Source of the DNA: an uncultured delta proteobacterium
Lineage (GTDB): Bacteria > Desulfobacterota > Desulfomonilia > UBA1062
Assembly (NCBI GenBank): GCA_963752595.1
Contig: CAVVYZ010000017.1
Coordinates: 192,001 to 256,000, forward strand
Length of the DNA: 64,000 nt
Direction: 5' to 3'
The notes beneath the pieces are model-generated. The model was given only the letters and a program-made list of their open reading frames with translations, ran no database searches and had not been told where the DNA came from. The position numbers were made by a program, and so were the translations under genes. Shown here in pieces: positions 6,808 to 28,230 of this stretch (position 1 is the first letter of the stretch; each line of letters begins with the position of its first letter).

Positions 6808-6823
6808 TTCAAAAAGAATGCCA
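6808..6823 (-). promoter_or_regulatory. sigma54-like -24/-12 promoter for the UPF0182 gene
   Basis: Minus strand TGGCATTCTTTTTGAA (GG-N10-GA), about 70 bp upstream of the start codon. Confidence 0.5.
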
Positions 6824-6923
6824 GGGCTTATCATGGAAAGCCTCGGCAGGGTTCTGATGAAGGTAAACAAACGATATACACCCTTTTTGAGCCCGAGAAG
6901 AGATCTGCAGGGAAAGTCTGCTT

Positions 6924-6963
6924 TGTCCATTTGCATGGGAAAGAAATCCCTTTTCTCCGGACA
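6924..6963. promoter_or_regulatory. tandem palindromic enhancer-like sites (TGTCC-N9-GGACA type) between divergent promoters
   Basis: TGTCC-ATTTGCATG-GGAAA (6924-6942) and AATCC-CTTTTCTCC-GGACA (6945-6963). Confidence 0.5.
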
Positions 6964-7043
6964 AGTTTCGAAAAAAAGCCTTTTCGCCCAGGCAATAACC
7001 TTTTTTTTAAGATTCGGCGTAAGCCCATTTTTTTACCGGCCCT

Positions 7044-7059
7044 TGGCATGCTCATTGTA
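7044..7059 (+). promoter_or_regulatory. sigma54-like promoter for the M50 protease gene
   Basis: TGGCATGCTCATTGTA versus consensus TGGCACG-N4-TTGCW. Confidence 0.55.
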
Positions 7060-7168
7060 TCTCCCTATATAAATACATACAAAAGAGCACATCCCTGCCG
7101 CCTCTCGAGAACTGCTTTCCGTATTGAAGTGACAGACCGGCGAATAAAGGTATCTGCTCGAAGGGAGT

Positions 7169-8329
7169 GTGTATATGTTCGGGAAGAGGATTAAGATATT
7201 CAAGCTCTTCGGCTTTTCCGTATATATCGATTTGAGCTGGCTCATTATAGCCGTACTTATCACCTGGACACTGGCCCAGGGCTACTTCCCTTATTTCAAC
7301 AAAGGCTTTTCCCCTAGGACATACTGGATCATGGGAGCTTTCGGAGCCCTTGGGCTCTTCCTGTCCATAATATTCCACGAGATGAGCCATTCCATGGTAT
7401 CAAGGATGTTCGGGTTGGAAATGAAAGGAATAACCCTGTTTGTCTTCGGGGGAGTCGCGGAGATGGGAGAAGAGCCTGCAAACCCGAAAGCCGAATTCTC
7501 CATGGCCATAGCCGGCCCCATTTCGAGCATTGCGCTCGGTTTTGTGTTTTACGGCATCTCCAGAATCGGGATGCAGCTTGCCTGGCCTCAGCCTGTCTGG
7601 GCGGTTCTCTCGTACCTGTCCGTCATCAACTTCGTTTTGGCCGCGTTCAACCTTATCCCTGCATATCCGCTGGATGGAGGCAGGGTTCTGCGTTCCGTGC
7701 TGTGGTCATGGAAGAAGGACCTGCGGTCTTCTACGCGCATCGCCTCCCGGATCGGTTCCGGATTCGGGATGGGCCTTATCATCCTCGGTGTGCTCAACGT
7801 ACTGACCGGGAACTTTATTGGGGGAATGTGGTGGTTTCTCATCGGCCTGTTCCTCCGCAATGCATCGAGCACGTCCTATACCCAGGTTCTCATAGAACGG
7901 GCGCTCAAGGGAGAGCCTGTCAGTCGGATCATGAAGACGCATCCGGTATCCGTTTCTCCATCGACATCCGTGGATGAGCTGGTCAACGATTATTTCTACC
8001 GCTATCACTACAAGATGTTCCCGGTGGAGAATGAATCCGGGAAACTCGAAGGGTGCATAACCATTGATAAGATAAAGGAAGTGCCTCATGACAAGTGGAA
8101 GGAGACGATAGTCGAGGACGTGGCATCCGGGTGCACCGAGAACAATACCGTTGATGCCTCTGCCGATGCCCTGAATGTCATGGCGAGGATGAACCGGCAG
8201 GGGGTGAGCAAGCTCCTGGTCACGGACAATGGTGAGCTGGAAGGCATCGTCACCCTCAAGGACCTGTTCGATTTTCTTTCCATCAAGATGGATCTCGAAG
8301 GTGAAAAGGTCATACCGAAGCGTCCATGA
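7169..8329 (+). CDS. site-2 (M50) zinc metalloprotease with tandem CBS domains
   Basis: HEMSH zinc motif, FNLIPAYPLDGGR, TM helices, C-terminal CBS pair. Confidence 0.93.
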   Translation: MYMFGKRIKIFKLFGFSVYIDLSWLIIAVLITWTLAQGYFPYFNKGFSPRTYWIMGAFGALGLFLSIIFHEMSHSMVSRMFGLEMKGITLFVFGGVAEMGEEPANPKAEFSMAIAGPISSIALGFVFYGISRIGMQLAWPQPVWAVLSYLSVINFVLAAFNLIPAYPLDGGRVLRSVLWSWKKDLRSSTRIASRIGSGFGMGLIILGVLNVLTGNFIGGMWWFLIGLFLRNASSTSYTQVLIERALKGEPVSRIMKTHPVSVSPSTSVDELVNDYFYRYHYKMFPVENESGKLEGCITIDKIKEVPHDKWKETIVEDVASGCTENNTVDASADALNVMARMNRQGVSKLLVTDNGELEGIVTLKDLFDFLSIKMDLEGEKVIPKRP

Positions 8330-8345
8330 AGAGTTTTTATCAAGG

Positions 8346-8384
8346 AATCCCATCTCGTAGGATTATGTCCTGCCCGGCAGGACA
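8346..8384. promoter_or_regulatory. tandem palindromic enhancer-like sites
   Basis: AATCC-N9-GGATT (8346-8364) and TGTCCTG-CCCGG-CAGGACA (8366-8384). Confidence 0.5.
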
Positions 8385-8457
8385 AGGAGGCATATGCCTG
8401 CACGGGCTGTTTATTGCAAGAGACTGAAATGATAGTTGATATATAGTTAGACCCCAG

Positions 8458-8473
8458 TGGCATGCTCTTTGTA
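8458..8473 (+). promoter_or_regulatory. sigma54-like promoter with no long ORF downstream
   Basis: TGGCATGCTCTTTGTA, 15 of 16 positions identical to the motif at 7044. Confidence 0.55.
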
Positions 8474-8777
8474 ATAACAAAGAATATTGGAATTTGGAAT
8501 TCTGTAGCAGGGTTGAGTCTTGGTAAGATTGGGGAACGCATATAAGGGGGCAAAGGAAGTTTTTCCTTAAACCTTTTTAATAAAATAAAAACCCCTTGTG
8601 AAATGATTCAGACAACACATTATATAAATTTATACGGCGGCCAGAACACAAAGGAAGATGGTTTGATGCTGATCTACAGAAGAATAGAGGATAGGGCAAA
8701 AGCAGTGAGCACCGCAATCATACTAAACGTTAGGTGTAAGGACAAAGCAGGAATGGACCACGTATGCTCCTCTTAGC

Positions 8778-8825
8778 GGGGGTTGGAGAACCTACCTCAG
8801 CCCCGTTCTCCAGCCCCCTTTTTTT
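8778..8825 (+). terminator. Rho-independent terminator
   Basis: GGGGGTTGGAGAAC / GTTCTCCAGCCCCC stem followed by T7. Confidence 0.75.
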
Positions 8826-9155
8826 CTCTCCTTCTAAGGAGAGAGACGAGCGAGGAGATATTCAATATGCGCACCATGCGAATTATGGGGAATTCGTATG
8901 GTGCTTCTTTCATTACCCGCCTTGATACAGAGACCCCGATAATCCTGCAGAGGACAGTATAACCAGGAACATCCTTTCCATAAGACCGGCACTGCGCCCT
9001 GTTTGAATTCACAATAAAACCAGGTAGTTTGGGATATTTCGAGGAGGCTGTATGAAAGACAACCATTTCATTGGGTATTTACCCCTTTCTTGGGATGGAG
9101 CGTTCTTGGGGAAAGCCCTGCCGAGGTGGTATATACTGTTATGATATAAAGGGGG

Positions 9156-9443
9156 GTGATGGAGGTAGTTTGTCCATTTTGCGGAAAGGCAAAGGATCTG
9201 CAAAGAGATTATCTCGGGCTTGTCAATGTACCGTGTGAATGTGGTGCTGTGGGTGTGATCAATAGGGCGGATGCCTTGCACATGATGAACATAGAGCTGG
9301 CTGGCATCTTTGCAGTCCCTGATATAGCGGCTTCGGAATTCGACCTGCATGAGCCCGTAAAGATAGATATGGGAGCCGAAGCAAGGAGCGTTGAAGTACT
9401 TATGATGATCAAGTGGGCCAGGAGGAAAGTTATCCCGGCTTGA
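9156..9443 (+). CDS. small hypothetical protein with CxxC...CxC (zinc-ribbon-like)
   Basis: CPFCGK ... CECGA, preceded by a G-rich RBS. Confidence 0.6.
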   Translation: MMEVVCPFCGKAKDLQRDYLGLVNVPCECGAVGVINRADALHMMNIELAGIFAVPDIAASEFDLHEPVKIDMGAEARSVEVLMMIKWARRKVIPA

Positions 9444-9470
9444 CGAGCTCGATCTCTTCTTGCGTTTAAT

Positions 9471-11195
9471 CTACCTTCGTCTGATCTTTTTTTTCAGCTT
9501 GTCTATGTGTAGGCAGTTGAGCACATCGCCCTTTCCCAGCCATCCCCGCCGGGCCTGGTTGACTCCGAGGTACATGTAGTTGAGGTCGTGGATGCTGTGG
9601 GCATCCGTAGAGATCACGACCGTAAGGCCCATATCCTTGGCTTGTTTGCAGTATATGTCATTCATGTCGAGCCTGTCGGGGTGTGAGTTGAGTTCGAGGA
9701 AGCAGCCCCTTTCACGTGAAGCTTCCATAACCTGCTCAAGATCTATTTCGTAGGGCTTCCGTTCGTTGATGAGCCGGCCTGTTGGGTGTGCGAAAATGGT
9801 GAAGTAGGGGTTGTCCATGGCTCTGATCACCCGTTCGGTCTGTTTCCATTCAGGAAGTTTCTGGTAGTAATGAACGGAACAGACCGTGAGATCGAGCCTT
9901 TTCAATACTTCGTCGGGATAGTCGAGAGACCCGTCTTCGAGAATATCGACTTCGGAAGAATTCAGGATCGTGATATCCGGATAGCGGTCGCTGAGCCTGT
10001 CAATCTCTTTCATCTGCTCCATGAGGGCATGCTTGTCAATCCCGTGGGCAATGGTCGTTTTAGGAGAATGATTGGTTATGGCGATGTATTCATACCCGTG
10101 CCCGACGGCAGCCCGAACCATTTCTTCGAGGGTGTTCCGGCCATCGGTTGCCTTTGTATGCGTATGGAGATCACCTTTGATATCATTGATCGTGATGAGT
10201 ACTGGCAGCGTCCCATTTTGTGCCGCTTCGATCTCTCCTCTGTCTTCCCGTAGCTCCGGCTCTATATAAGGCAGGCCTACCGCATTGAAGACCTCCTCCT
10301 CGGTATGCCCTGCAATCCGCTCTTCGCCGTGGAATACGCCGTATTCGTTGATCTTCAGATTTTTCTTCTGGCCCATCCTGCGTACGATGATGCCATGCTG
10401 CTTTGAACCTGTGAAATAGTGCAGGGCAGCCCCGTAACTGATCTCGGGAACCACCCTCAAGTCCACCTGGAGACCTGAGCGCAGTATGACTGTGGATCTG
10501 GTCGTGCCTTTGGATACAATGGTGATAATGTCTTCGTACCGGGTGAAGGAATCCATTACCTTTTCATGATCCGAACAGATCACGAGGATATCGAGGTCTC
10601 CGACCGTCTCCATCCTGCGGCGGTAGCTTCCTGCCACCACAACCTCTTCCACCTCGGGCAGCGTTTTGAGGATACGTACGATGGACCGTGCCGTCTCATC
10701 GGCAACGATATATTTCACCCGTTGTTTTCCCTGCTCTGACTTGTGAACGATATCTTCGAGGATCTTCTGCTCTATTTTGCTTCCGAACCCCCCGAGCTTG
10801 CTGATCTCCCCATGCAGGGCAGCCTCTTTAAGATCCTTTTCCGTGCTGATGCCGAGTTCGTTATAGATGGTGCGGATTCGCTTTGGCCCCAGGCCGTCGA
10901 TACCCATGAGCGAGCCGAGCTCTTCAGGAATCTGTTCTTCGATCTTATCGAGCTGGTGGAGCCTGCCTGTACGGGTTATTTCTCCGATCTTCGCAGCCAG
11001 ATTTTTTCCTATCCCGGGCATCTGTGTGAGATCCTCGCCTTCACGAATCATGTCTTCAACGTCCCTTGGCTGGGATTCGATGATTCTCGCAGCATTGCGG
11101 TAAGCCCGGATGCGGAACTGATTCGATCCCTGGATTTCCAGAAGGTCTGCCATCTTGTCAAGAACTTGTGAGATGTCATGATTGTGCATGGGCAT
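9471..11195 (-). CDS. polX: DNA polymerase X / PHP 3'-5' exonuclease
   Basis: AYRNAA, HhH motifs, GSYRR..GDLDIL, QVDLRV, YFTGSK. PHP motifs DLHTHT, AHPTGR, STDAH. Confidence 0.95.
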   Translation of the reverse strand: MPMHNHDISQVLDKMADLLEIQGSNQFRIRAYRNAARIIESQPRDVEDMIREGEDLTQMPGIGKNLAAKIGEITRTGRLHQLDKIEEQIPEELGSLMGIDGLGPKRIRTIYNELGISTEKDLKEAALHGEISKLGGFGSKIEQKILEDIVHKSEQGKQRVKYIVADETARSIVRILKTLPEVEEVVVAGSYRRRMETVGDLDILVICSDHEKVMDSFTRYEDIITIVSKGTTRSTVILRSGLQVDLRVVPEISYGAALHYFTGSKQHGIIVRRMGQKKNLKINEYGVFHGEERIAGHTEEEVFNAVGLPYIEPELREDRGEIEAAQNGTLPVLITINDIKGDLHTHTKATDGRNTLEEMVRAAVGHGYEYIAITNHSPKTTIAHGIDKHALMEQMKEIDRLSDRYPDITILNSSEVDILEDGSLDYPDEVLKRLDLTVCSVHYYQKLPEWKQTERVIRAMDNPYFTIFAHPTGRLINERKPYEIDLEQVMEASRERGCFLELNSHPDRLDMNDIYCKQAKDMGLTVVISTDAHSIHDLNYMYLGVNQARRGWLGKGDVLNCLHIDKLKKKIRRR

Positions 11196-11227
11196 GAGAA
11201 CGCTTCCTTTCGTGGATATGTATGAGT

Positions 11228-12457
11228 TCAGAGATTGCCTTTCAGGCGATAGATGGTTTCGAATGAAGAAAAGAGGTCGAGGTAACTCTCCAGGCTCCGC
11301 GTCATCAGAAAATTATCCCTGACTTGCTTTCGAGCCTCTTGTCCCAGCCGCCTGCGCAGGTTTTCATCCCTGATCAGGCGGACGATCCTGTCTGCCGTTT
11401 CCTCGATCGATGATACCAGGAACCCGTTGACGCCGTCTTTGATCTGGTAACGGATCCCTCCTGCATTTCCCCCGACTACCGCTGCCCCTTTCCACATTGC
11501 CTCGGTCACGGTAAGACCAAACCCTTCACGAAGGGATTTCTGTACGATCACGGCTGATTTACGCTGCAGTGCATTTACCAGGGCGGTGTCCTGCCTGCTG
11601 ATGATAATGATGTTCTCTTCCCGCTTGCTTAAAAGCAAGTCGTACACCTGCTCGCCTTCCGGGTCATCGGTGGCGATGTTTCCCAGCAATACCAGGGTGC
11701 AGGGGACTTCTTTCCTGGCGATCTTGAATGCCCTGATCACGCCTTCGGGATCCTTCCACCTGTCGAAACGTGAAATTTGAGCAACAATAGGCAGGTTGGT
11801 GGGGATATGGTAGTAATCGAGCCGTCCCTGAATGTCTTCATCGCTCATCTCCCTGTTCTTGATGGAGAACGGATCGATCGAGGGCTTGAAAAAGAGCTGG
11901 GGAATGGAGAGATCCTGCCGATACTCCTCAAGTGTGAAGATCACTGCATCATAGCTTTCAATGAAGGGTAGGAGATAGTTCCAGAGTTTCTGATTCGGAT
12001 TGGTGAGATCTACATGGCAACGCCAGATCCAGGGGCCGTTTTTCCTGTAGTGTTTGATCATAGGAAGAGGCTGGGGATCGTGGATAATGACGAAATCATG
12101 ATCGTCCAGGTGATTGCGGATCGAATTCTCGAAGATGATATCCTCGTATATCCGGCATTTCCGCACAGAGAGATTGATATCATCTCCCTGCAGCGCATTA
12201 TGCATCTTCTTTGTAATACTGAAGAAATCAGCAGCTCCTTCAATTATACGCCATCCTGTTTTGATCCCGATGCTGTTCATGAGAAGGGTGAGAGGAGAAA
12301 GCAGCTCGGCAACACCTCCGCCGTAGTAGGTGGAATTGATGTGGGCGATATGCAGATCGCCCAGCTTTTCTGCTTTTCCCCTGATCCGGGCGACGGCTTC
12401 CTGCCCGATATAGGGCTCATAGTCCTCAACAGTTACCAGCTTCAGGTTCTTATCCAT
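11228..12457 (-). CDS. treT: trehalose glycosyltransferring synthase TreT-like (GT4)
   Basis: INSTYYGGGVAELL, KKMHNALQG, IHDPQP, WRCHVD, SRFDRWKDP, QKSLREGFGLTVTEAMWKG. Confidence 0.88.
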   Translation of the reverse strand: MDKNLKLVTVEDYEPYIGQEAVARIRGKAEKLGDLHIAHINSTYYGGGVAELLSPLTLLMNSIGIKTGWRIIEGAADFFSITKKMHNALQGDDINLSVRKCRIYEDIIFENSIRNHLDDHDFVIIHDPQPLPMIKHYRKNGPWIWRCHVDLTNPNQKLWNYLLPFIESYDAVIFTLEEYRQDLSIPQLFFKPSIDPFSIKNREMSDEDIQGRLDYYHIPTNLPIVAQISRFDRWKDPEGVIRAFKIARKEVPCTLVLLGNIATDDPEGEQVYDLLLSKREENIIIISRQDTALVNALQRKSAVIVQKSLREGFGLTVTEAMWKGAAVVGGNAGGIRYQIKDGVNGFLVSSIEETADRIVRLIRDENLRRRLGQEARKQVRDNFLMTRSLESYLDLFSSFETIYRLKGNL

Positions 12458-12479
12458 GGGTTTTTCCTTTCTTTAAAGC

Positions 12480-13508
12480 TCATCCCTCACAACGCAAGAA
12501 AGATGCATCTTCTTCGGGAAGATGGGTATTGATGCTCATGCCGGAACCCATCTCGAATCCTGCTCTGGTCGTGATGCGGGGCTTGACCTGGAGAAACCAG
12601 TGCAGATGGGGCTCTTCCGAGCGGTATTTTATGCAGGAGTGTATCATGTAATTATAATCCGGATTCTCCAACCTCTCGAAGAGACTTTTCAGGAGTATAT
12701 GGTGGATCGATGACAGATCGGATTTCTCTTCATCCGAGATATTTCCGAAATCGGCCTTGTGGGCTTTGGGCATTATCCATACCTCGAAAGGCTGCTCGGC
12801 TGCATAGGGCACGAAGGACACGAAGGAGCGGTTCTTGTGGATAACGCGGCTCCCGTCTGCAAGCTCTTGTTGAATGATGTCGCAGTATATGCAGGTCCCC
12901 CAATCGTCAAAGTAGTTCTGGGCACGGCATTCCCGGGTACGGATATATTCCGGGGCTATGCCTGTCGAGATTATCTGGGAGTGTGGATGAGGTAACGATG
13001 CTCCCGAGCGTGGACCGAAATTCCTGAAGATAACGGCAGTCATGTTTCTGTCAATCTTCATCAGGGTCACATACCTCTGGTGGTAGGATTCGATAATAGT
13101 CTCAACCTCTTGCCTCGACATGACCGGGATCTGCCTGTTATGGATCGGACTCTCGATGATGACCTCATGATGTCCATACCCTGCCATTGAGACATGGTTT
13201 CCCTCTTTTATCCTGTATTGAGCTCCACCAGGTGTGAGTGCAGGATATTTGTTTGCAATGGAGCGTGTCTGCCAGTGTGGGCCCCGACCCTTGCATTCCA
13301 TGATGATCTCGGTGAGCTTGTCTTCATTGCCGGGGCAGAACGGGCAGTTCACATCATATGCCGGGAGGTTTTCATGCTTCCGCCCGGTGCTTAAATTATC
13401 CTCCGGCCTCTTTCTTCTTGACAGGGCATAGATTACCCATTGGCCTGTAACGGGATTCCGGCGCATTTCATTCCCGGGCAGCGGAGGTAGGTTCATGTCC
13501 TTTTTCAT
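12480..13508 (-). CDS. galT: GalT-like sugar-1-phosphate nucleotidylyltransferase (HIT superfamily)
   Basis: R.NPVTGQWVI...R..RP, CPFCPGNE, NKYPAL, GHHEVIIE, GASLPHPHSQ, AGFEMGSG. Start codon uncertain. Confidence 0.85.
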   Translation of the reverse strand: MKKDMNLPPLPGNEMRRNPVTGQWVIYALSRRKRPEDNLSTGRKHENLPAYDVNCPFCPGNEDKLTEIIMECKGRGPHWQTRSIANKYPALTPGGAQYRIKEGNHVSMAGYGHHEVIIESPIHNRQIPVMSRQEVETIIESYHQRYVTLMKIDRNMTAVIFRNFGPRSGASLPHPHSQIISTGIAPEYIRTRECRAQNYFDDWGTCIYCDIIQQELADGSRVIHKNRSFVSFVPYAAEQPFEVWIMPKAHKADFGNISDEEKSDLSSIHHILLKSLFERLENPDYNYMIHSCIKYRSEEPHLHWFLQVKPRITTRAGFEMGSGMSINTHLPEEDASFLRCEG

Positions 13509-13518
13509 TTGGGCTTTT

Positions 13519-14316
13519 TCATGACTCTGGCTGGCAGCGGGGGCAGAAGAATGCACTCCTGCCCGAAATCCTCCGGTGCTTAAGAGCCCTTGTGCACCTT
13601 GGGCAGACAGAACCGGACTTCCTCGTGCGTATTATGTAATCTCCCGGCATGAGATTTGGATCTGCCCCGCACTGGATGGCAGTAGAGAGCACGTCTTTGA
13701 GAGCGGTAAAGATGTCCCGGAATTTTTCCTCCGGCAGAGAGCTCAGAGTCGAAGCAGGGTTTACTCCCGACTGGAACAGGATCTCGTCCGTATACACATT
13801 CCCGAGTCCTGCGATTACGTGCTGGTCCATGAGTATCGATTTGATCATGCCCCGTTTGCACTTGAGTATCCTTTGAAAAAGGGCGAAGTCCATCCTGCTG
13901 TCAAGGGCATCGATCCCCAGGCCGTGTGTATGGATAAACTCGATAGGGGAAGAAATAAGATAGACACCTCCGAGATTCCTTCGGTTGATATACGCCAGGT
14001 GATGCCCGTTGGAGAATGAAAAGAGGATGTTCACATGCTGCGGTTTCGTATCAGGAGGCTCCTGGAAGTACTGGAGGCCTCCGGTCATCCCGAAGTGCAT
14101 CACGATCCACTGTTGTCCGTCCAGGTTCACAAAGAGATATTTTCCGTATCGTGCGGTATCCGTCATGTTCCTCCCCTTGAGGTATTGCTCGAATTCCTGG
14201 ACCGGCAATTCTTTCACCAGGGAGGGGTTGAATACCCGAAGGAAAGCAATATTCCTATGGAGAGATGTATCATGCAGATACTGCCGTAAACATTCAATAT
14301 CGGGGAGCTCAGGCAT
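13519..14316 (-). CDS. Fpg/Nei family DNA glycosylase/AP lyase
   Basis: N-terminal PELPD, GKYL, HFGMTG, H2TH motif MDQ..IAGLGNVYTDEIL, C-terminal CPRC..CPRCQ zinc finger. Confidence 0.92.
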   Translation of the reverse strand: MPELPDIECLRQYLHDTSLHRNIAFLRVFNPSLVKELPVQEFEQYLKGRNMTDTARYGKYLFVNLDGQQWIVMHFGMTGGLQYFQEPPDTKPQHVNILFSFSNGHHLAYINRRNLGGVYLISSPIEFIHTHGLGIDALDSRMDFALFQRILKCKRGMIKSILMDQHVIAGLGNVYTDEILFQSGVNPASTLSSLPEEKFRDIFTALKDVLSTAIQCGADPNLMPGDYIIRTRKSGSVCPRCTRALKHRRISGRSAFFCPRCQPES

Positions 14317-14821: not shown

Positions 14822-14845
14822 GGTTACTCCTTTCCCGAAATATGG

Positions 14846-16854: not shown

Positions 16855-17748
16855 TTAAGTTTCCTGCTCCCCTTCCTCGAGGGCATTGAATCCCGAGATG
16901 ATATCAAGCAGTTCCTCGGTAATCGATACCTGCCTCTCCTGATTGTATTGATTTTTCAACTCGGTGAGCCTTTCCTTGATATTCCTTTCCGCTCCCTGCA
17001 TGGATGAGAGCCTTGCTGCGTTCTCGCTTGCCAGGGATTCGGCAAACGCCCTGAAAAGGGATGCGTTGAGATAGTGCCTGACCAGAGCGGAGAAGAGCGT
17101 GTCCGCATCCATGCGGAATACCGGCAGCTCCCTGGTGGGCCAGGGCTCTTCGGTAATGCCTTCCAGCCATTGTCTGTCAAGGGGCAGCAGCCGCATCAGG
17201 CGGGGTTCATACGAGGCCCCGGAGATATGGTGATTGTATTCGAGTAAGACCTGCTGAATCCCGTATTGGCCGTTCCAGTGGTCGATATCACTGATGATCT
17301 CCTGCACGGTCGGGGTAATTCCCTCCGGTGATACCGGCACCGGTAGAAGTTCCTGAATCGGGAGGCCTTCACTCAGAAGTCGGTCATGGATCCTTTGGCC
17401 TACGGACAGGATCAGACAACTCTGCCGGTTTATGCCAGGCCTTTTCATCGTGTCCAGGGTATGGTCTGCGATCCTGTCGTTGAATTGCCCGCACAAGCCC
17501 TGGTCCGACCCGAAAACAAGGAGGACCATGCGGCCGCGGCCCTGCCGCTGATCTTTACCGGGAGGGAGGTACCTGAGCAGGCCGCGGAAAGCAAGCATGA
17601 CCGCCTTGTTGTATTCGTTCAGCGATTCCTGTGCCCTTTCGTATTCGCGGATGTTTACCGCAGCCATAGCTTTCATGGTCTTGACCATGGAGAGGAGGTC
17701 CTGGGCAGTATCATGCTTTTTTTTCAATACCTGGAGATCCGGCATCAT
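16855..17748 (-). CDS. atpG: N-ATPase gamma subunit
   Basis: [47 protein letters not shown]. Confidence 0.93.
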
Positions 17749-19306
17749 CTTTCCTTTTTGCATATGGGTCTGCAGCATCTCTCGCAATCTTCACGAGAGA
17801 CTCCCAATCCTGGTCCGAGAGCTCCTTGTCAGAATCGATCTTGTCACAGATCTCGGGAAGGCGTTCTTTGACCGATGATCTGATGGCTTTTTCCACCTCG
17901 GGGATATCTTCCAGAGGTATTTCGTCGAATACTCCTTTGGTCACGGCAACGAGTACGGTGATCTGCTCACAGGAGTTCATGGTATCGTACTGAGACTGTT
18001 TCAGCGCCTCTCTGACACGGTGGCCTCTCTCAAGGACTTTGCGGGTCTGCTCATCGAGCCTGGTGCCGATCCGGGAAAAGGACTCCAGCTCTTCGAACTG
18101 CGTGTAGGAGAGCCTTAAATCCCCTGCTACCACACGGTAAGCCCTTCGCTGCGCTTTGCCGCCGACCCGGGACACAGATCTGCCTACATCCACCGAAGGG
18201 AGCTGGCCTTTATGGAAGAGCTCGGGTGAGAGGTAGACCTGACCGTCGGTAATAGAAATCAGATTGGTGGGAATGTATGCGGAAATATTCTGGGCCTGGG
18301 TCTCCACGATAGGAAGCGACGTGAGAGACCCTCCGCCGAGTTCTTTGCGCAGGTGGCCGGAGCGTTCGAGCAGGCGCGAGTGGATGTAGAAGATGTCGCC
18401 GGGAAATGCCTCCCTTCCCGGAGGCCGCCTCAGGAGGAGTGAGATCTCGCGGTAGATCCTTGCGTGCCGGGTGAGATCGTCGTAAACGATCAGCACATCC
18501 CGGCCTCGGTCGAGGAAATATTCTCCTACCGTGGTGGCGCTGTACGGAGCCGTGTATTGCAAGCCCGGCGGGTCTTCGCCAACAGCCATCATTACAATCG
18601 TATACTCCATTGCATCCCGTTTCGTGAGCTCGGAGACGACCTTGGCGATAAAACCGCTCTCTTTTCCGATGGCGCAGTAGATACAGATGACATCCCGGCC
18701 CTTTTGATTGATGATGGTGTCTATGGCGATGGCGGTCTTGCCCGTCTGCCGGTCGCCTACAATGAGCTCACGCTGCCCTTTGCCGATAGGGATGAGCGTA
18801 TCGATGACCTTGATACCTGTCTGCATGGGTTCGGTAACCGGGAGACGGTCCATGATGTCGGGGGCCTGCCGCTCGATATAACGGTACTCTGCGGCTGCCA
18901 CGGGGCCTTTGTTGTCACGCGGCCTGCAGACGGCATCCACGACCCTGCCGATCAACGCCTCACCCACCGGCACCTCAAGCACACGGCCGGTTCGGCGAAC
19001 CTCCATGCCCGAGGAAAGCTCACTTCCTTCATCCAGCAGGACTACCCCCACACTGTCGATATGAATGTCGAAAGCTATTCCCAGCCGGTTGCCCGGAAAT
19101 CGCACGAGTTCATCGGCGCGGATTCCGGGGAGCCCGTTTACCCTGGCAATGCCCTGCTCGACCTGTGTTATTATACCGGTCTCCAGGATGGTGAGTTCGG
19201 GACGATAGCTATCCAGTATTCCGCGAGAAAGAGGAGAGGTCATTTCCAAAGCTGTCCATATATCGGCTTCCGGATGAATGGCGCCTTCAACTTCAGTCAT
19301 GTGCAT
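17711..19306 (-). CDS. atpA: N-ATPase alpha subunit
   Basis: [52 protein letters not shown]. Confidence 0.96.
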
Positions 19307-20081
19307 TCTCCCGGCGCTGGCCGAAGGTATCGATAATGGATCGTGATACCTTCTCCTCGATATCTTCCAGGAACTGATCCGCGTTCCAGCTCACTTTGTA
19401 GCCATCGGCGTTCACTTCTATCCCCAGGATGAGATCGGATGACTGCTGATACCTGACGGAAATATTTTCTGAAAACTCTTTCTTTAACGCTTCTGTCAGC
19501 ATATGACGCAGATTGTCGGCAAGATCGAACGAGCTGGTGACCGTGAGGGCGGTCTCTCTTTTCCGTATAGCATCAGCCAGCTTTTCTTTTCGATCAGGCT
19601 CAACCCCTTTCAATCGCCGGATGAAAACGTCCACAAGTCCCTCTTCCATATCCTTTCCTGCAAGATCACCGATGATGCGATGAGCAATGCGAGTAGAGTC
19701 CTGAATGCTCATGAGCATCAGGCGCTCTGCGATCTCCTTCTTTTTCTGATCAAGGATTTCACGGAGCCGGTAATGTTCTCTCCGGGCATCTTCACGTGCC
19801 TGCACAAGATATTCTTCACGCTTCCGGCTCCCCTCCAGTGCTGCTTCTCTGAGTATCTGCTGCTTCTGCTCGCTCAGCTTGAGATTTTCTTCCCGGTATG
19901 CATCCAGTTCCTGCGCTGCCCGGTCCTGCTTTTCCTTTGCATCGTCGATCTGTGAAGCGATCTGCGCTTTGCGCTCGCGCATGGCGGTCCTGATCCGGCC
20001 GAAGAGGAAAAACTTCAGGAGAGCGACCAGAATCAGAAAATTGACGATTTGAGCGATTATCGTAAACCAGTCGATAATCAA
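19293..20081 (-). CDS. atpF: N-ATPase b subunit with delta-like C-terminal extension
   Basis: [21 protein letters not shown], coiled coil, C-terminal LILGIE...GYKVSWN. Confidence 0.92.
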
Positions 20082-20092
20082 GGCACTTCTCC

Positions 20093-20368
20093 TTAACGGG
20101 ATAGAAAGTGGTTCCAGAACGGGTTGGCAAAGATGAGGATCATGGATACGACGAGGCAGTAAATGGACGTGGACTCTATCATGGCAAGGCCCACGAACAA
20201 TACCCTGCTCAGGGTTCCTGACTCGTCAGGCTGCTGTGCAATGGCAGTCATGGCCTGTGCAACCGCCCTGCCTTCTCCGAGGGCGGTGCCGATCGCCCCC
20301 ATGCCTATGGTAATACCTGATGTAAAAATCGATACGATTCCGATAACGGTAATTGCATCCATAAACAT
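20093..20368 (-). CDS. atpE: N-ATPase c subunit, Na+-binding type
   Basis: ALGEG in helix 1, AQQPD loop, MIESTSIY in helix 2, ANPFW tail. Confidence 0.95.
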   Translation of the reverse strand: MFMDAITVIGIVSIFTSGITIGMGAIGTALGEGRAVAQAMTAIAQQPDESGTLSRVLFVGLAMIESTSIYCLVVSMILIFANPFWNHFLSR

Positions 20369-20410
20369 AGTCTCCTTTTTCCAAGGGATGATAAGGCAGC
20401 TTTTGATTTC

Positions 20411-21121
20411 TCATCTTTGTTGCCTCTGCTCCGTTTCATATTCTGCGTGACTGGCCGAGGTAATGTAGACCATGGACAGCACGGCGAAAATATATGCCTG
20501 GATGAATCCGGTAAGCAGCCCGAGCACGTGCAGGAACACCGGCATGACGAGTGGGATTACGGTCAGCAGGATTGCGGCAATCTTTGTCTCTGACATGATG
20601 TTGCCGAAAAGTCTTACGGCAAGGGCCAGGATTCGCGTAATTTCACTGATGATATTGAAAGGCAGCATGAAGACCGAGGGCGTGGAGAAGGTTTTCAGGT
20701 AGGCAAGGAGGCCGCCGCTTCCGATCCCGTACAACGGAACAGCGACAAAGACGCAGGCGGCCAATGCCGTAGTGGTTGCAAGGGATCCCGTCGGGGGAAC
20801 GTATCCCGGAACGGTCATAAGCAGGTTCGACAGCGCGATGAAGAGAAAGAGCGCCCCGATGAATGAAAGGTATTTCTCGGCCTTTTCATGTGATATTTCC
20901 TCGATCTGGGACGAAAGGATATCCACTATGGATTCTACAAAATTCTGCCAGGAGCCGATCTCTTTTCCCACCGAAAGGCGTCGGGTGGCGAGCAGCGAAA
21001 TGATCACCAGTATCCCCATGGTGATCCAGGTGTAGAGGATCGTAGCATTGAACTTCAGCCATCCCATCTGCCAGAAGATGACGGCATCCGGTGTTATCTC
21101 GCTGATAGTCATGATATCCAT
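20411..21121 (-). CDS. atpB: N-ATPase a subunit
   Basis: PPTGSLATT, LPFNIISE.TR.LALAVRLFGNI, IQAYIFAVL. Start at 21121 or 21112. Confidence 0.93.
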   Translation of the reverse strand: MDIMTISEITPDAVIFWQMGWLKFNATILYTWITMGILVIISLLATRRLSVGKEIGSWQNFVESIVDILSSQIEEISHEKAEKYLSFIGALFLFIALSNLLMTVPGYVPPTGSLATTTALAACVFVAVPLYGIGSGGLLAYLKTFSTPSVFMLPFNIISEITRILALAVRLFGNIMSETKIAAILLTVIPLVMPVFLHVLGLLTGFIQAYIFAVLSMVYITSASHAEYETEQRQQR

Positions 21122-21423
21122 CGCGCCCCCCCGATATCTCCTTTCCTGCTTATCTTTGAAGGGGTTATGAAAAACAGAAGCAGTTGCCTTGCAATGAAAA
21201 AGCCTGTGATGCACGCGATGTATCCGGTCAGCCGGCCTTGGGAGACCAGGAAAAAAAGGACCAGAACGATACCGGCACGCACAACGAAACTGCCTATGAG
21301 GAAAAGGCCGGGTCTCTGCTTCGAACGTATACGCCTGACGGTGAGCATAAGACCCATAAAATAGCCGAATCCGGCTCCGACTCCTGTCAGGAATACGAGA
21401 AAGAGCGGTAAAGAATCATGCAT
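21109..21423 (-). CDS. atpR: N-ATPase AtpR subunit
   Basis: Hydrophobic 104 aa with YF.GL..TVRR and SFVVR, in the diagnostic position between atpQ and atpB. Confidence 0.85.
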   Translation of the reverse strand: MHDSLPLFLVFLTGVGAGFGYFMGLMLTVRRIRSKQRPGLFLIGSFVVRAGIVLVLFFLVSQGRLTGYIACITGFFIARQLLLFFITPSKISRKGDIGGARWIS

Positions 21424-21441
21424 AATCTATAGCGTTCCTTT

Positions 21442-21760
21442 CTATGCATCTCTTTTTGCTTTCCTGATCTTAAGCATTGCTTTCACCCAGAACCACGCGT
21501 TCAGGCAGCCGAGAGTAAGCCCGATAAAGAGCATCGTCAGGGTCCATGAATGCGTACCGGGCACCTTGGCATCCATCCATGTTCCGAGCGCGATCCCCAG
21601 GAGGGTTGGGATGGCGATTGACCATCCCACAAGCCCGATCATCCCCAAACCGTATATCAGGGTGATCTTACCGGCGCGTTCGGCTTTTTCCCGCCGTATC
21701 TTTTTGGTGTTAATCTGTCTGATGAACCCCTTTTCTCTCTTCTCCTTTTTTTCCTGGAAA

Positions 21761-21768
<8 letters not shown>
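21442..21768 (-). CDS. atpQ: N-ATPase AtpQ (AtpZ/AtpI family)
   Basis: GLGMIGLVGWSIAIPTLLG..LG.W.D, SWTLT, GCLNAWFWV. Confidence 0.88.
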
Positions 21769-23588
<1,820 letters not shown>

Positions 23589-24081
23589 TCATGAAAGAAT
23601 CCCAATGCACAAGGATTCGCATCATGATCAGGCCGTCCTATTACATCATCTTTAAGGCCGGCTCGCCTACTAGGCGTTTTCCGGAAAATGTATTCATCCC
23701 TTCATTGGATCAACATCAAGGGATCTCCCTGTACAAGAGGGTTTCCCCTAAAAGGCAGTAAGCGAGAAGGTCATTGATGACACGAAAGGTCTTCATAAAG
23801 AGAACCCGTTCTTAGATTCATGAATAGGGCTATACACAAGATTCTCAATTCTTTCCTGCCAGGCCGGGTTTTACTCTTCAGTGGCAGGTGATATTACTGC
23901 AGGTGCAGTTCTTTGACCCGAAACCTTCGGACCGGTAATCTTCCCGTACGGACATAGAGGATGTTTATTGCTTTCTTATGAAGGCCTGTTTCAAACGGAA
24001 TATCTGTTGCAATTCATTATACTCGAGAGTATATTATCAATGAGTTACAGTCACTTACATGATTATAAATTACTATAAGCA

Positions 24082-24095
24082 TTGATTGTTATCAA
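24082..24095. promoter_or_regulatory. FNR/Crp-family binding-site match
   Basis: TTGAT-TGTT-ATCAA in the AT-rich region upstream of atpD. An IHF consensus match TATCAA-TGAG-TTA lies at 24035-24047. Confidence 0.45.
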
Positions 24096-24396
24096 TCATT
24101 ATTGACACTCATATTATATATGTTCTACCTATCCATATAGGTAGCTTGCTTTACAGTTATATAGATTAATTTATTGCCACTTAAATATCTAACAAGCAAC
24201 ATAGCTATAAACTTTAACACTGTTTTCTTTCCTGTATCCTGAAATACAAAAGGTACGGTTTTTTCTTGATGCATGAAAAGGATTTTCGGAGCCTTACCGG
24301 TGTGTGCTCCGGTCTTCAAAGGAGCTCGTTCATATATCCCTGGGGTGTATATGCCGAGCCTCTCGAAAACAAAGAATTCATATATTCAGAAGAACG

Positions 24397-24421
24397 GGAT
24401 TCCCGCTTACACCGGAATGAC
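24397..24421. repeat. REP-like imperfect palindrome (GTCATTCCSG...GGGAATCC class)
   Basis: GGATTCCCGCTTACACCGGAATGAC; single copy in this window. Confidence 0.35.
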
Positions 24422-24559
24422 AGGGAGATTCCTGGATCATCTAGGCCGACATGACATATACACTTTTCCTGGAGGCGGAGAAAACCCGGTGATTTCCACC
24501 GGGTCGAACTCCCCCCACAAAGAGATGCTGAAATGGCCGGGTCGAGATTCTGATGTTCC

Positions 24560-25327
24560 TTACTGCCCGGCCAGTCGGCAGGTTTTATCGCCGTTTCCTC
24601 CAGATCTCAAGTCGTCTGAGCTCATGATGGCAATATCCTGGTCCTGCAGGAATTGCTTCATCTTCTGGAGCGATCTTACCTGGAGCTGTCTTACCCGCTC
24701 CTGGCTCAAACCAAGCTGCGAACCGATTTCCATGAGGGTAACAGGCGGGTCCGAATAGAACCGTTTCAGAATGATGAACAACTCCCTCCGTGTCAGCATC
24801 GTAAAGCCCTGCTGAAAGAGAAAAGATACCTGACGGGATATTTCTCTGCCGGAGTAGAGCGATTCCAGATCGAAATCATCAGTCAGATAATCCACCCAGC
24901 GATCAGTTTCGCTGGGATCGCCTGCTATGGTCTCATCAAGAGAAAGGAGATCTTTTGTATGTCGTAAGGTCCCCGTCCGGATCTTACTGCTTTTGCGGAT
25001 AAAATCCTTTATGGATGCCTCGATCCACCAAACGGCATAATAAATGAAGTGTACTCCGCGATCGGGATCGAACCGGGTAAGGGCTTTCATGAGGCCCAAG
25101 TTGCCTTCCTGGACGATCTCAAGGTAATTATGGCCGCTATTGAAATACTTCTGGCTTACCTTTACAACGAACCTCAAGTTTGCATGGATTATCTTTTGGC
25201 CAGCATGCACGTCACCCTGCTGGTACTGTTTCGCAAGTTTATACTCCTCTTCTGGCGTTAAGAGAGGGTATCTTCTTATTTTTCTTAAATACAGCTGTAA
25301 TTCTGAATAATCATGTCTGTTTGCCAT
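24560..25327 (-). CDS. atypical sigma70-family sigma factor (RpoH/sigma32-like, shortened region 3)
   Basis: Region 1.2 LQLYLRKIRRYPLLTPEEE; region 2 NLRFVVKV...QEGNLGLMKA..RFDPDRG..F..YAVWWI; region 4 TL.EIG..LGLSQERVRQL. Confidence 0.9.
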   Translation of the reverse strand: MANRHDYSELQLYLRKIRRYPLLTPEEEYKLAKQYQQGDVHAGQKIIHANLRFVVKVSQKYFNSGHNYLEIVQEGNLGLMKALTRFDPDRGVHFIYYAVWWIEASIKDFIRKSSKIRTGTLRHTKDLLSLDETIAGDPSETDRWVDYLTDDFDLESLYSGREISRQVSFLFQQGFTMLTRRELFIILKRFYSDPPVTLMEIGSQLGLSQERVRQLQVRSLQKMKQFLQDQDIAIMSSDDLRSGGNGDKTCRLAGQ

Positions 25328-27175
25328 ATATATTTACCTTTCCTGAAAGTAGCTTCACGGATTCTATGAGTTCTTCTGGTTGATGACTTTTACCATTTGC
25401 CTTATATCGCCTAATTGTTCGCCGGCCGGGGATAACCGTCTCGATGAGATGGGCTGTCTCCGGGTATGTCTCTTTTAATGCTTTCTCTATATGCTCAGCG
25501 GTGACCAGACGGGATTCTGAATAATCCTGTCCCTGCTCGATTACGTGTAACAGCTTCATGAGGTGCTTCTCGAAGTCACCCTTCAAGAACTGTGGATGAC
25601 TGCAGAGAGAAAGGATCGCGTGCCGTGCGGATATGTGGAAAAACTTCTTGCTGTTGAGCGTTCGTATTTTATCAAAGGACGGCTCTTTCGGTATCCTGCC
25701 GACTGCAAGTTCCTCCTTGTTGCATGGGCGTCCGACGAGATAGGGAAAGTCCGGGTCTACAAAAGAGAGAATGGAATATTCGCACGCACTGCCGGTTATT
25801 ATGATGGTTGTATTGAGGGGGGTTGCCCCGGATCCGGGCTTCCGGAAGCGAATGTGCCTCCATGCGGAACAGCATGGGTGAAGTTGAGTTCTTTTTGGGA
25901 GATACTACTTTTCAATAACTCCCAGAGATGGAACTGTCGCAGTATCCAGGATGCCTCCAGTATCAGGATCCCCCCATTGGCTTCATGCAGGGCACCGGCT
26001 TTTGCCATGGTAAAGTCTACCCGAGAAAGGGGAAGGGCCTTGGGAGACGAAGTACTGCAGCGTCCGAATAAGTCCTCGAACCCTGCATCCCTGGCAAAGA
26101 CCAGTGGACGGTGCCTCTTGTTTGCCCTGCTCACCAGGACATTTACCGTATAGGGTGAATACAGGCCTTCGCGGGAGGTACCCGCCTTGACTTCCAAGGG
26201 GGCGGGAAGAGAAGTTCCCTCTGCCGGCAAAGTGAAGATCTGGAGATTCCTAAGGATATCTTCCTCCACGTCCTCAAGATAAACGAGTATCCTCGGCATC
26301 TTGCGGTACTTTTTCCTGAGTCTGGCCATGAGAGGGGAAACCCCTTCCCTTGCCTTATCCTTGGTGAATGCATCGAGCTCTTCAGTGCACTTCTTCTTGA
26401 GCGACCTGATCCGGTCGCGGATGAGGCGGTAATCTACGGGTTGAGGCTGGTCGAAAATTGCAACAGCGCTGTTGGCTGCCGGTGTCCTTCCTATTCCGGA
26501 AAACGCTACAACCGGCTCGGTATAACTCTCCGCAATGGGGGCTTTCGATACCTCCCTTGTAATCCTATTATAGTTATAGAGAGATCCTCTGCTGAGGCTC
26601 TGGTAGAGAGGCCGGACAGCGGCCTGTTCCTGCTGGTCATAGCTCAGCATCAACATGTGAACCTTTTTCTGGAAATGATCCGAAAGCAGGATGTTTCGGA
26701 GTCGTTGCCGTGCTTCATCGATGAAGTGCTCCATCTCAGAAAGGAACCGGGGGCCTTCCCCTGCAGGAAGGGCAATGACCCTTGGCCGCGACTCTACCTG
26801 GAAGTTATGGACACAGCACCAATCGCAGGGTTCCGGAAGTGTCCTTCCAAGGAACTTTAAACCGTCGATGAACTCCCTGATGTAGGGAAGATGCTCTTTT
26901 TGAGAGAGGAGAAACAGGAAATCCGCTTCCTTTTCAAAGAGCTTAGTCCATTTCTGAGTAAAAAATTGAAGCGGGTATTGCGCTAATTTTCCGAAAATAT
27001 TGTATATTATTCCTGACAATTTATTCTTTCCCCTTATATATACTTGACTTGCGCCGAGCTGCTTTGCCTTTGCTTCCGGGCGCGGAGGATGATGGCTTGG
27101 ACCATGATAAACCTCCTTCTGCCGCGGAATCATTTTCCGCGTCCCAACGGATTTCGAGAAGGCTTCATGGAGCAT
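25311..27175 (-). CDS. degenerate LonB-like AAA protein (AAA_32-type) without protease domain; one frameshift at G6 ~25817-25822
   Basis: DWCCVHNF..RPRVIALPAGEG, Y.VNVLV, DLFGR, DFTM.KAGALHEANGGILIL. After a frameshift the reading continues PLNTTIIITG..YSIL..VDPDF into ORF 25311..25586 (VTAEHIEKAL). Start uncertain. Confidence 0.75.
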
Positions 27176-27194
27176 GACCGTCTCAATGGTCAAA

Positions 27195-27461
27195 TCAGTC
27201 GAATAATTCAGGGAAACTTTCCCTGACGTCACGAGGGTGCTTGAATTTGATCCGACCATGTAAAAACATGCTGGAGATCTTTTTGGCGATAAGCCTGTCC
27301 TGCGCCGGAATGGATTTCTCTTGGACAGATCGGGAAAAGCGAAAGCCTGAAGTATTGTCGATGCTCTCGCTGATAGCCTCCATGAGGTCATAGAGGGTGG
27401 TGGTGATTTCTACTGTTTTGCTCCTCGATCCTAATGAACTATAACCACTATGTATGCTCAT
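27195..27461 (-). CDS. small hypothetical protein (TTLYDLMEAI motif)
   Basis: Strong RBS AGGAGG before ATG 27461; 88 aa; first gene of the operon with the AAA protein and sigma factor. Confidence 0.7.
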   Translation of the reverse strand: MSIHSGYSSLGSRSKTVEITTTLYDLMEAISESIDNTSGFRFSRSVQEKSIPAQDRLIAKKISSMFLHGRIKFKHPRDVRESFPELFD

Positions 27462-27545
27462 AGTAAATCCTCCTATGGTCTCTGTTGATGTTCCGGGCAT
27501 TCATCTTTTTGTTCATGATGAAACCCATGCGTCACATCCTCTTTA

Positions 27546-27562
27546 TTCAAATGCTGTGCCGA
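27546..27562 (-). promoter_or_regulatory. sigma54-like promoter of the small protein / AAA / sigma operon
   Basis: Minus strand TCGGCACAGCATTTGAA (GG-N10-GA). Palindrome TGTCC-TGTGAAGCG-GGATA upstream at 27647-27665. Confidence 0.5.
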
Positions 27563-27958
27563 CATTGTGGAATAGAAATAAATCATACAAATCCAAAGAG
27601 ATAAAAAAGGAAGCTCTGAAATACAGATCTCCCACACACTGATTGCTGTCCTGTGAAGCGGGATAAGTCCTCTCTGATGAGAATCTCACTCGTGGTGATG
27701 CAAATTTGGCCCAATTCCCGACATGTTAGGCATATTGATCATGCATGTCTTTTTCTCATGTCTTTGTAATTATTAGATGCATCCGTTCTACCATCCGGCA
27801 TTTTGAAAACCGGTTCCTGTCTGAAGATTTTTAGAAATTATCAGTGTCGGTAGTAAAATAATGAGTGTGCGAACAATTACCGGTCAGTCCCAGGATACCC
27901 TCTCTTCAATGATTTTTTAAACCGGTTTTATTATTCCTGTGGTTCAGGGCAGCGCGGG

Positions 27959-28201
27959 TTACATGTGCCTTGAGAGATCATGTTTATGGAGCAGAGCATA
28001 CAATCTGGACCGGGACAGACCGGATATCCTGCATGCATTCGATACATCACCAGAGGTACATTTCATGAGTTCCATGAGATAAAAACGCTCCACCTCTGTA
28101 ATATACCGGCTACGGATCGGACGCAGCCGGGGAAGGTCGGGTGATGGCGACCGATTTACCTTTGTGAGGATCTGATTGAATGACGGCTTACGAATGTCCA
28201 T
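27959..28201 (-). CDS. stand-alone Fis-type HTH protein, paralog of the adjacent regulator's C-terminus
   Basis: ACRISGLSRSRLYALL is identical to the HTH of 28468..29871; no AAA or receiver domain. Confidence 0.7.
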   Translation of the reverse strand: MDIRKPSFNQILTKVNRSPSPDLPRLRPIRSRYITEVERFYLMELMKCTSGDVSNACRISGLSRSRLYALLHKHDLSRHM

Positions 28202-28214
28202 ACATCACAGCTAT

Positions 28215-28230
28215 AACAAGGTATATGCCA
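28215..28230 (-). promoter_or_regulatory. sigma54-like promoter upstream of the HTH gene
   Basis: Minus strand TGGCATATACCTTGTT (GG-N10-GT). IHF-like TATCAAATGGATA at ~28273-28285. Confidence 0.45.

Follow-up and report, generated by a model that had tools for sequence, protein, structure and literature searches.

We analyzed a 64,000-nucleotide stretch of DNA, hereafter the window, from an uncultured delta proteobacterium of the UBA1062 lineage (assembly GCA_963752595.1, contig CAVVYZ010000017.1, positions 192,001 to 256,000). The window carries the genes of a hybrid histidine kinase and an NtrC-family activator, a gene for a small helix-turn-helix (HTH) protein related to that activator's DNA-binding domain, and five sigma54-type promoters, four of which are preceded by TGTCC-N9-GGACA-type palindromes. 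The palindrome pairs and the promoters very probably form a regulon of the adjacent activator. The core features are the following.

29894-32341 (-), hybrid sensor histidine kinase of 815 aa (REC, two PAS, HATPase, and REC domains by Pfam/NCBIfam), the likely cognate kinase
28468-29871 (-), NtrC-family sigma54 activator of 467 aa (REC, AAA+, and Fis-type HTH domains), the predicted palindrome binder
27959-28201 (-), stand-alone Fis-type HTH protein of 80 aa, a paralog of the activator's DNA-binding domain and a candidate decoy repressor
6808-6823 (-), sigma54-type promoter of the UPF0182 gene, TGGCATTCTTTTTGAA, TTGAA at -12; found in 5 of 7 congener loci with UPF0182 beside M50
7044-7059 (+), sigma54-type promoter of the M50/CBS gene, TGGCATGCTCATTGTA, TTGTA; found in 10 of 10 congener loci having the gene
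8458-8473 (+), sigma54-type promoter (the gap promoter in relatives), TGGCATGCTCTTTGTA, TTGTA at -12
27546-27561 (-), sigma54-type promoter of the transcript for a small open reading frame (ORF), a LonC-like protein, and a sigma factor, CGGCACAGCATTTGAA, TTGAA
28215-28230 (-), sigma54-type promoter of the HTH-only gene, TGGCATATACCTTGTT, TTGTT at -12
6924-6942, enhancer pair 1, site a, one mismatch to TGTCC-N9-GGACA
6945-6963, enhancer pair 1, site b, two mismatches; the pair is common to the divergent 6808 and 7044 promoters
8346-8364, enhancer pair 2, weaker distal site, four mismatches (counted by eye)
8366-8384, enhancer pair 2, proximal site, a perfect TGTCC-N9-GGACA with no mismatches and the best site of the genome
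27647-27665, enhancer pair 3, proximal site, one mismatch; 104 bp upstream of the 27561 promoter (101-105 bp in orthologous loci)
27666-27684, enhancer pair 3, weak distal site, four mismatches (counted by eye)
27933-27951, single enhancer-like site just 3′ of the stop codon of the HTH-only gene, at about +253 from the 28215 start

All five promoter motifs were present where an earlier note on this DNA had placed them, each joining a -24 GG to a -12 element at an exact spacing of 10 bp, and the canonical C at -12 was absent from each; only the end given for the fourth, 27562, was one base too long. That note had also assigned a palindrome to four of the promoters. Every copy was found, although they make up three independent enhancer regions rather than four, because the 6808 and 7044 promoters share one pair. 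Pairs 1, 2, and 3 repeat with periods of 21, 20, and 19 bp, and the nearest sites lie 100, 80, 73, and 85 bp from the 6808, 7044, 8458, and 27546 promoters, respectively. The proposed enhancer-type geometry was borne out in relatives, where tandem dyads stand at a conserved distance, about 80-150 bp, upstream of sigma54-type promoters. Transcription from the five promoters is predicted to begin at about 6797 (-), 7070 (+), 8484 (+), 27535 (-), and 28204 (-). From 44 sites and 27 promoters in relatives we built matrices, which refined the enhancer site to TGTCCTGY-N3-RCAGGACA, in pairs 19-21 bp apart; positions 6-8 had not been used in site selection. Only weak matches to IHF-like sites occur between enhancer and promoter. 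The 28215 promoter, conserved in 9 of 9 aligned sequences amid diverging flanks, has no upstream palindrome, as the note had said; a conserved copy lies downstream, at 27933-27951. That downstream copy, the HTH-only gene under this promoter, the sigma factor as core target, the loss of gap and the small RNA-like element behind 8458, and a likely target on contig C15 had all escaped the note. The genome encodes an intact sigma54 (rpoN, 461 aa; TIGR02395, 452.8 bits).

The kinase gene lies 22 bp upstream of the activator start, and the two genes are adjacent in congeners as well. In the activator, the phosphoacceptor, Walker A and B, arginine finger, and sensor II motifs are all intact; loop 1 reads GSYTGA, which is a variant of the GAFTGA type, and the recognition helix reads SRSRLYALL. 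Its nearest named homologs, 87-94% identical, come from Syntrophaceae bacterium UBA6087 and UBA1062, Deltaproteobacteria bacterium Phox-21, and Desulfomonilia bacterium, which points to a Desulfomonilia-type anaerobe. Orthologs are encoded by 11 of 11 congeners (76-94% identity) and by 2 of 29 other genomes (66-67%), and in 13 of 13 ortholog loci a TTG[A/T] promoter has retained a site 101-105 bp upstream. We then grouped loci by the identity of their bacterial enhancer-binding protein (bEBP), using only the consensus of the earlier note; 78 of 79 loci could be classed (one lacked a full bEBP match), and these loci are kin and overlap the genomes numbered with a G. Site and promoter occurred together in 18 of 19 loci with a bEBP at least 60% identical, in 4 of 50 at 40-59%, and in none of 9 below 40%. 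The helix SRSRLY[AG]LL was present in all 19 loci of the top class. Spacers of N7, N8, N10, and N11, used as controls, were matched in 0, 0, 1, and 3 of 19 orthologous loci. Across 41 genomes, a gapped pattern was found in 10 of 11 congeners and in both other ortholog-bearing genomes, as against 5 of 27 genomes without an ortholog; the reversed pattern gave 3 matches in all 41. Because the site co-occurs with its orthologs and with their recognition helix, the local NtrC-like protein, which the note had put forward as the obvious candidate, is the best candidate binder among some 20 bEBPs.

Within the 4.12-Mb genome, the signal lies in the coupling of site to promoter. Of 45,708 random non-coding positions, 1.6% have a site with at most two mismatches in the 85-130 bp upstream of them. 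Among intergenic YGGCAY-N5-TTG motifs, such a site accompanied none of 30 with C at -12 and 4 of 22 with A or T, and all four site-carrying TTG[A/T] motifs of the genome lie in the window. The promoter motif TGGCAY-N5-TTG occurs 44 times in non-coding DNA with a spacer of 5, compared with 1-7 times for other spacers. Tandem pairs at a period of 19-21 bp number three genome-wide, exactly the three of the earlier note. In a scan of the genome with the matrices of its relatives, the four paired window promoters took ranks 1-4 of 359 promoter-like sites, a result that is not independent because the training sites are orthologous to those of the window.

Two promoters outside the window extend the pattern. 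A galT-treT promoter was examined in 5 loci, and all 5 have a pair with a 19-bp period at 172-196 bp upstream, beyond the range used for training; this promoter was not observed in the window, whose fpg and galT genes overlap. Another, TGGTAC-N5-TTGTT (G000:C15:104900-105050, L233), has sites at 113 and about 94 bp and precedes a lipoprotein-like gene that is divergent from genes beside a glgX-like ORF; out of sample, a site at 113-115 bp was present in 3 of 3 genomes with this gene, which is likely an extra regulon target. A further match, C1:348878, lies inside a long ORF, fitted the gapped pattern in G000 only, and was treated as chance. Separately, a periplasmic Spy/ZraP-like gene and the genes of another kinase-bEBP pair are separated by divergent TTGAA/TTGT promoters (G000:C22:136514-136713), and a 19-bp palindrome-like site occurs in regions of this type (L153, L154) in G002, G005, and G008 but not in G000; this match to the gapped pattern was left unassigned.

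The earlier note took the non-canonical -12 position as a mark of the regulon, and this did not survive: 18 of the 44 non-coding TGGCAY-N5-TTG motifs of the genome lack the C, most of them without a palindrome, and one such divergent pair lies beside another bEBP. The C was absent from 23 of 23 paired promoters of orthologous loci, and the non-C form made up 23 of 24 TGGCAY-N5-TTG motifs near orthologs, 15 of 18 directly downstream of homologs 40-59% identical, and 2 of 9 near other bEBPs (60 control loci; the samples are small and related). The non-C bias thus appears typical of this activator clade, though not exclusive to it. We considered the GSYTGA loop as its cause; however, 18 of 23 members of the wider clade with GAFTGA also have non-C downstream promoters, so the loop 1 tyrosine is not the explanation. 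Nor does a non-C base exclude sigma54 membership, because 9 of 87 published Desulfovibrio vulgaris sigma54 promoters lack the C (by-eye count in the accessible part of PMC4641369). The link between activator clade and non-C promoters offers a direct test of whether activator and sigma54 core promoter are matched.

The gene under the 28215 promoter encodes little beyond an HTH. The last 45 residues of its 80-aa product match the HTH of the activator, with ACRISGLSRSRLYALL identical in both and the same recognition helix. The adjacent activator is its sole match in the genome (57% identical over 44 aa), identity to Fis structures is 20-28%, the HTH_8 score of 20.7 bits falls below the cutoff of 22, and PDB sequences gave no match. 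The predicted structure (pLDDT, predicted local distance difference test, 83.9) consists of a long helix and an HTH, with Fis and the NtrC4 DNA-binding domain as best matches; the long helix (residues 23-48), on the N-terminal side of the HTH, can be aligned with that of the activator. Among 10 congeners, nonsynonymous divergence (pN) is 0.04-0.16 against a synonymous divergence (pS) of 0.48-0.82; the gene is intact and, by this measure, under purifying selection. Its ATG falls at +3 to +6 in 12 of 12 loci (about +4 in the window) and at about +2, by eye, in three more; the mRNA is therefore predicted to be leaderless.

Stand-alone copies occur in 15 of 122 genomes of the class, in three genera: this genome, 10 congeners, G104, G114, G116, and G119 (22 genomes matched at E ≤ 1e-12, those beyond the 15 through activator C termini). 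Most of the other short matches appear to be C-terminal pieces of bEBPs, the N-terminal family motif being present in 2 of 30 read (P0023, P0027). In a tree, eleven HTH-only rows form one clade (96/80) beside the domain of the cognate activator (91/77); duplicates were removed, L216 and L217 were lost at extraction, and Fis itself is absent from it. In the 11 loci of the genus and the 4 loci of other genera examined, the order is promoter, HTH gene, enhancer, next promoter. In those four loci, the enhancer pair begins about 15-70 nt after the HTH stop codon, with the next promoter 102-124 bp further on. In the genus, 10 of 11 genomes, namely that of the window and 9 of its 10 congeners, have a single downstream site between +252 and +257 from the 28215 start (score 9.8-15.9), with an enhancer pair at about +520/+540. 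A downstream enhancer would account for the missing upstream copy of the 28215 promoter, as described for rocG. In Bacillus subtilis rocG-rocA, in the accessible part of PMC4941409, one enhancer between tandem sigma54 promoters acts on the first from downstream and on the second from upstream; the placement behind the HTH-only gene is alike, but the first gene there encodes an enzyme rather than a copy of an activator's DNA-binding domain. We consider it probable, on these comparisons of sequence, that the HTH-only protein is a competitive decoy induced by the activator and closing a negative feedback loop.

The genes and elements served by the remaining promoters are as follows.

24560-25327 (-), RpoH-like sigma70-family factor of 255 aa with regions 1.2, 2, and 4, the core conserved target
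25799-27391 (-), LonC/LonB-like AAA fragment, apparently broken, 37-63% conserved and absent in some congeners
27195-27500 (-), small conserved ORF of about 90-100 aa with no family assigned, which comes first behind the promoter in the window as in distant relatives
3985-6738 (-), UPF0182 membrane protein, target of the 6808 promoter
7169-8329 (+), M50 site-2 protease carrying CBS domains, the 7044 promoter's target
8756-8826 (+), small RNA (sRNA)-like element, a hairpin with a C-rich loop and a U-tract, z -3.25

The sigma factor is 85-98% identical in congeners (93-98% in most) compared with 55-80% for neighboring enzymes. It has no Pfam match in region 3 and scores 178 bits against TIGR02392, below the cutoff of 323, and is thus RpoH-like only, not RpoH (sigma32) by the curated model. 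The family is present in 49 of 51 genomes of its taxonomic family versus none of 70 of the other (E ≤ 1e-55). In other genera, the sigma factor follows the same enhancer and promoter, and in distant relatives these precede the small ORF, sigma factor, kinase, and activator as one operon, which implies positive autoregulation there. In the genus of the window, the kinase and activator genes instead sit upstream of the sigma transcript. Two loci of relatives (L048, promoter 10599; L042, promoter 11684) place a second sigma70-family gene under a second copy of enhancer and promoter. A sigma paralog on C21 is 48% identical; neither a sigma54 promoter nor a site was found upstream of it.

The 8458 promoter drives gap in 7 of 9 aligned relatives; the gene is absent from the window and from two relatives. 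Here, the promoter is followed by the sRNA-like element, of which 57 contiguous nucleotides, ending in a terminator-like hairpin, are invariant in 11 of 11 genomes that have it. It occurs in 10 of 11 congeners and none of 29 other genomes, and is kept where gap is absent; in 5 of 6 metagenome matches, the same promoter and pair, together with gap, stand ahead of it, at about 1.3 kb. The element contains anti-Shine–Dalgarno-like stretches; a target search over 6,965 start regions returned no clear target, and Rfam covariance models gave no matches. We rejected a CsrA-sponge RNA or a conserved small ORF behind 8458, since conservation extends to neither the GGA-rich stretch nor the short ORFs and relatives have gap, and likewise a leucine-type attenuator, which by eye lacked a conserved upstream ribosome site and a matching downstream gene. 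A sigma70-like promoter, TTGTGA-N17/18-TATAT at 8596-8626 (+), lies about 160 bp upstream of the element. Such a promoter precedes it in 3 of 11 genomes (this one, numbered G000, and G004 and G001), which tells against exclusive control by the 8458 promoter; the element may therefore not depend on the regulon alone. Downstream of its terminator, at 9156-9443 (+), lies a 95-aa ORF with CxxC motifs, also present in G004, with a weak Lar_restr_allev match below the cutoff.

These features can be drawn into one scheme, which as a whole we regard as the more probable account: enhancers of the kinase-activator pair, their sigma54 targets, and a competitor derived from the activator's own HTH that limits the response. 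bEBPs act on sigma54 promoters by a general mechanism (described in the accessible part of PMC7057263), and sRNA targets have been confirmed for such regulators (PMC3333781, likewise in part). Here, the kinase would phosphorylate the activator, which would bind the two tandem dyads as dimers, oligomerize, and loop to the sigma54 holoenzyme, turning on the promoters for the RpoH-like sigma factor, the M50/CBS protease, UPF0182, the gap/sRNA transcript, and the HTH-only copy. As in rocG-rocA, the enhancer behind the HTH-only gene would serve two promoters, that at 28215 from downstream and that at 27561 from upstream. The leaderless HTH protein would dimerize like Fis or the NtrC DNA-binding domain and, because it has no AAA+ domain, would compete at the enhancers without activating. 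Such competition would feed back negatively and make the alternative sigma factor appear as a pulse. A bolder version, which we offer tentatively and do not hold as the likelier outcome, would see here, at an early stage, a second and independent birth of a Fis-like protein from an NtrC-type activator, in which a leaderless self-repressor pulses the sigma factor and the sRNA and the clade uses distinct non-C sigma54 promoters.

Several observations weigh against the regulon and its assignment to this activator. By itself, the palindrome shows no genome-wide enrichment (perfect copies number 3 for N9 compared with 3-13 for spacers N5-N14); the signal lies in promoter coupling and conservation. 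Control period bins hold 1, 1, 0, and 2 tandem pairs. The relatives are kin whose training sites are orthologous, so ranks and counts overstate independence. Finally, about 20 bEBPs are encoded in the genome (15 whole matches plus fragmented ones), and nearness alone therefore does not name the binder. On this last ground, the palindrome might be read by a different regulator, another bEBP or a repressor, with the nearness reflecting a gene island inherited together with the activator; D. vulgaris DVU0653 and DVU3023, which have different helices yet similar TGTCC-N8-GGACA sites, would suit this reading. We judge this quite improbable, because the site tracks the activator across rearranged loci with different targets and is mostly missing from genomes without it.

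With the regulon granted, the role of the HTH-only protein is the less settled part, and here too some evidence cuts against a decoy. The tree rests on 58 columns, and Fis leads the Foldseek matches with a probability of 0.97 but weak E-values (0.28 and above). Several genomes with both activator and enhancers lack the gene (G009, G022, and six other loci), which is therefore dispensable; its helix has drifted in G114 and P0023, and the promoter of the G114 gene is a canonical TTGCT. The activator has no counterpart of the conserved N-terminal KPxFxxI motif of the 80-aa protein, which might have a different function. That motif, together with the weakness of IHF-like matches between enhancer and promoter, would suit a Fis-like helper that occupies the weak distal site or bends DNA in a positive feedback; Fis, the top structural match, acts positively or negatively (accessible part of PMC6428758). 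Such a helper seems unlikely to us, as a protein with an unchanged recognition helix is expected to bind where the activator does and so to exclude it, and the enhancer geometry (101-105 and 120-124 bp) does not differ between genomes that have the gene and those that lack it. Inhibition might instead proceed mainly through mixed dimers with the C-terminal helices of the activator, as a dominant negative with little DNA binding. Fis and NtrC domains dimerize through the helix preceding the HTH, and this helix is retained in the 80-aa protein in alignment with the activator's; however, no part of the family varies less than the DNA-reading helix, a constancy that inhibition through protein contacts alone would not need, and we rate this route as improbable too. 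The HTH-only gene and the -12 pattern could also be by-products of tandem duplication and promoter copying with no regulatory role, given that the gene is absent from many activator-bearing genomes (G020 holds only a remnant) and that non-C promoters are common in this genome. Near-saturated synonymous change with a pN of at most 0.16, and the retention of the gene's own promoter and start spacing in three genera, make this very unlikely. The decoy at the enhancers is thus the reading that we prefer for the HTH-only protein.

The closest described system is the DVU0653 regulon of D. vulgaris (Kazakov et al. 2015; PMC4641369, to which this comparison refers in its accessible part), with TGTCC-N8-GGACA-like 18-mers and a noncoding RNA target. 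Each system has a response-regulator bEBP (the DVU0653 helix, a related one, reads GISRGHLYELV), TGTCC...GGACA dyads in tandem, and a sigma54 promoter without the -12 C (TTGGT for DVU0653); there, a noncoding RNA target is directly downstream of the regulator gene. The DVU0653 site, however, is an 18-bp N8 dyad repeated every 30-33 bp, unlike the 19-bp N9 dyad repeated every 19-21 bp in the window; the N8 spacer of the DVU0653-type site, TGTCCG-N6-CGGACA, was matched in none of 19 orthologous loci, compared with 18 of 19 for N9. It has one target, as opposed to several including a sigma factor here, and that text describes no HTH-only paralog. The comparison of the regulators covers the 42-aa HTH of DVU0653. 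DVU3023 likewise has sites reading TGTCC-N8-GGACA-like, and the HTHs nearest to that of the activator are those of DVUA0057 (SRTRLYELL), DVU0679 (SRSHLYEML), and DVU3220 (SRSHFYALL). These four differ in having 16-18-bp sites with other half-sites, promoters that mostly keep TTGC, and lactate, exopolysaccharide, or nitrogen genes as targets, unlike those of the window.

A local sigma54 regulon is in itself of a well-known kind; the novelty lies in the conserved HTH-only part. PMC6428758, in the part accessible and with reference to Morett and Bork 1998, describes Fis as an NtrC-type DNA-binding domain that stands alone, and it resembles the 80-aa protein in being a small protein made of a bEBP C-terminal domain, with a fold that is probably similar. 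However, Fis is a global nucleoid protein, whereas the 80-aa protein keeps its parent's helix, lies beside the parent gene, and is under a predicted parent-dependent promoter; its family branches as a distinct clade, probably the product of a separate duplication. Like the proposed decoy, the bEBP anti-activators NifL and FleN are dedicated to restraining an activator. PspA and HrpV are further examples, and Caulobacter SciP is a small HTH protein induced by the regulator that it inhibits. All of these differ in being unrelated to the domain with which the activator binds DNA or in acting on the AAA+ domain. In the Rrp2-RpoN-RpoS cascade, a bEBP and sigma54 drive a sigma70-family factor. The HrpRS-sigma54-HrpL cascade does so too, as far as the accessible accounts go. 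The window's target differs from both in being a family-specific RpoH-like factor without a region 3 match. A literature search that did not cover most subscription journals found no HTH-only competitor derived from an activator, and one of similarly incomplete journal coverage found no deltaproteobacterial sigma54-rpoH cascade.

The regulon would provide a mapped cascade from sigma54 to an alternative sigma factor, with binding site and targets, for a group of uncultured anaerobes. If the decoy reading is true, sigma54 control would include repression by an activator-induced copy of the activator's own DNA-binding domain, and the HTH-only paralog would be a recent, traceable repeat of the presumed route by which Fis arose.

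The wider neighborhood includes trehalose synthase, PolX, Fpg, PfkB, and N-ATPase genes, which suggests a general stress or survival response; the block of N-ATPase, pfkB, fpg, galT, treT, and polX may be transcribed by readthrough or served by the sigma factor. The combination of M50/CBS protease, pfkB, and trehalose genes may resemble the mycobacterial DosR gene set. A complete N-ATPase (alternate F1F0) operon at 16855-23585 (-) lies behind the sigma factor gene and is missing or partial in some congeners; the intervening gap, 23586-24560, is AT-rich. Genes for purH and purD (35422-37775) and the LonC-like gene (25311-27391) are in pieces, as are several bEBP genes elsewhere in the genome; these breaks are probably assembly indel errors.

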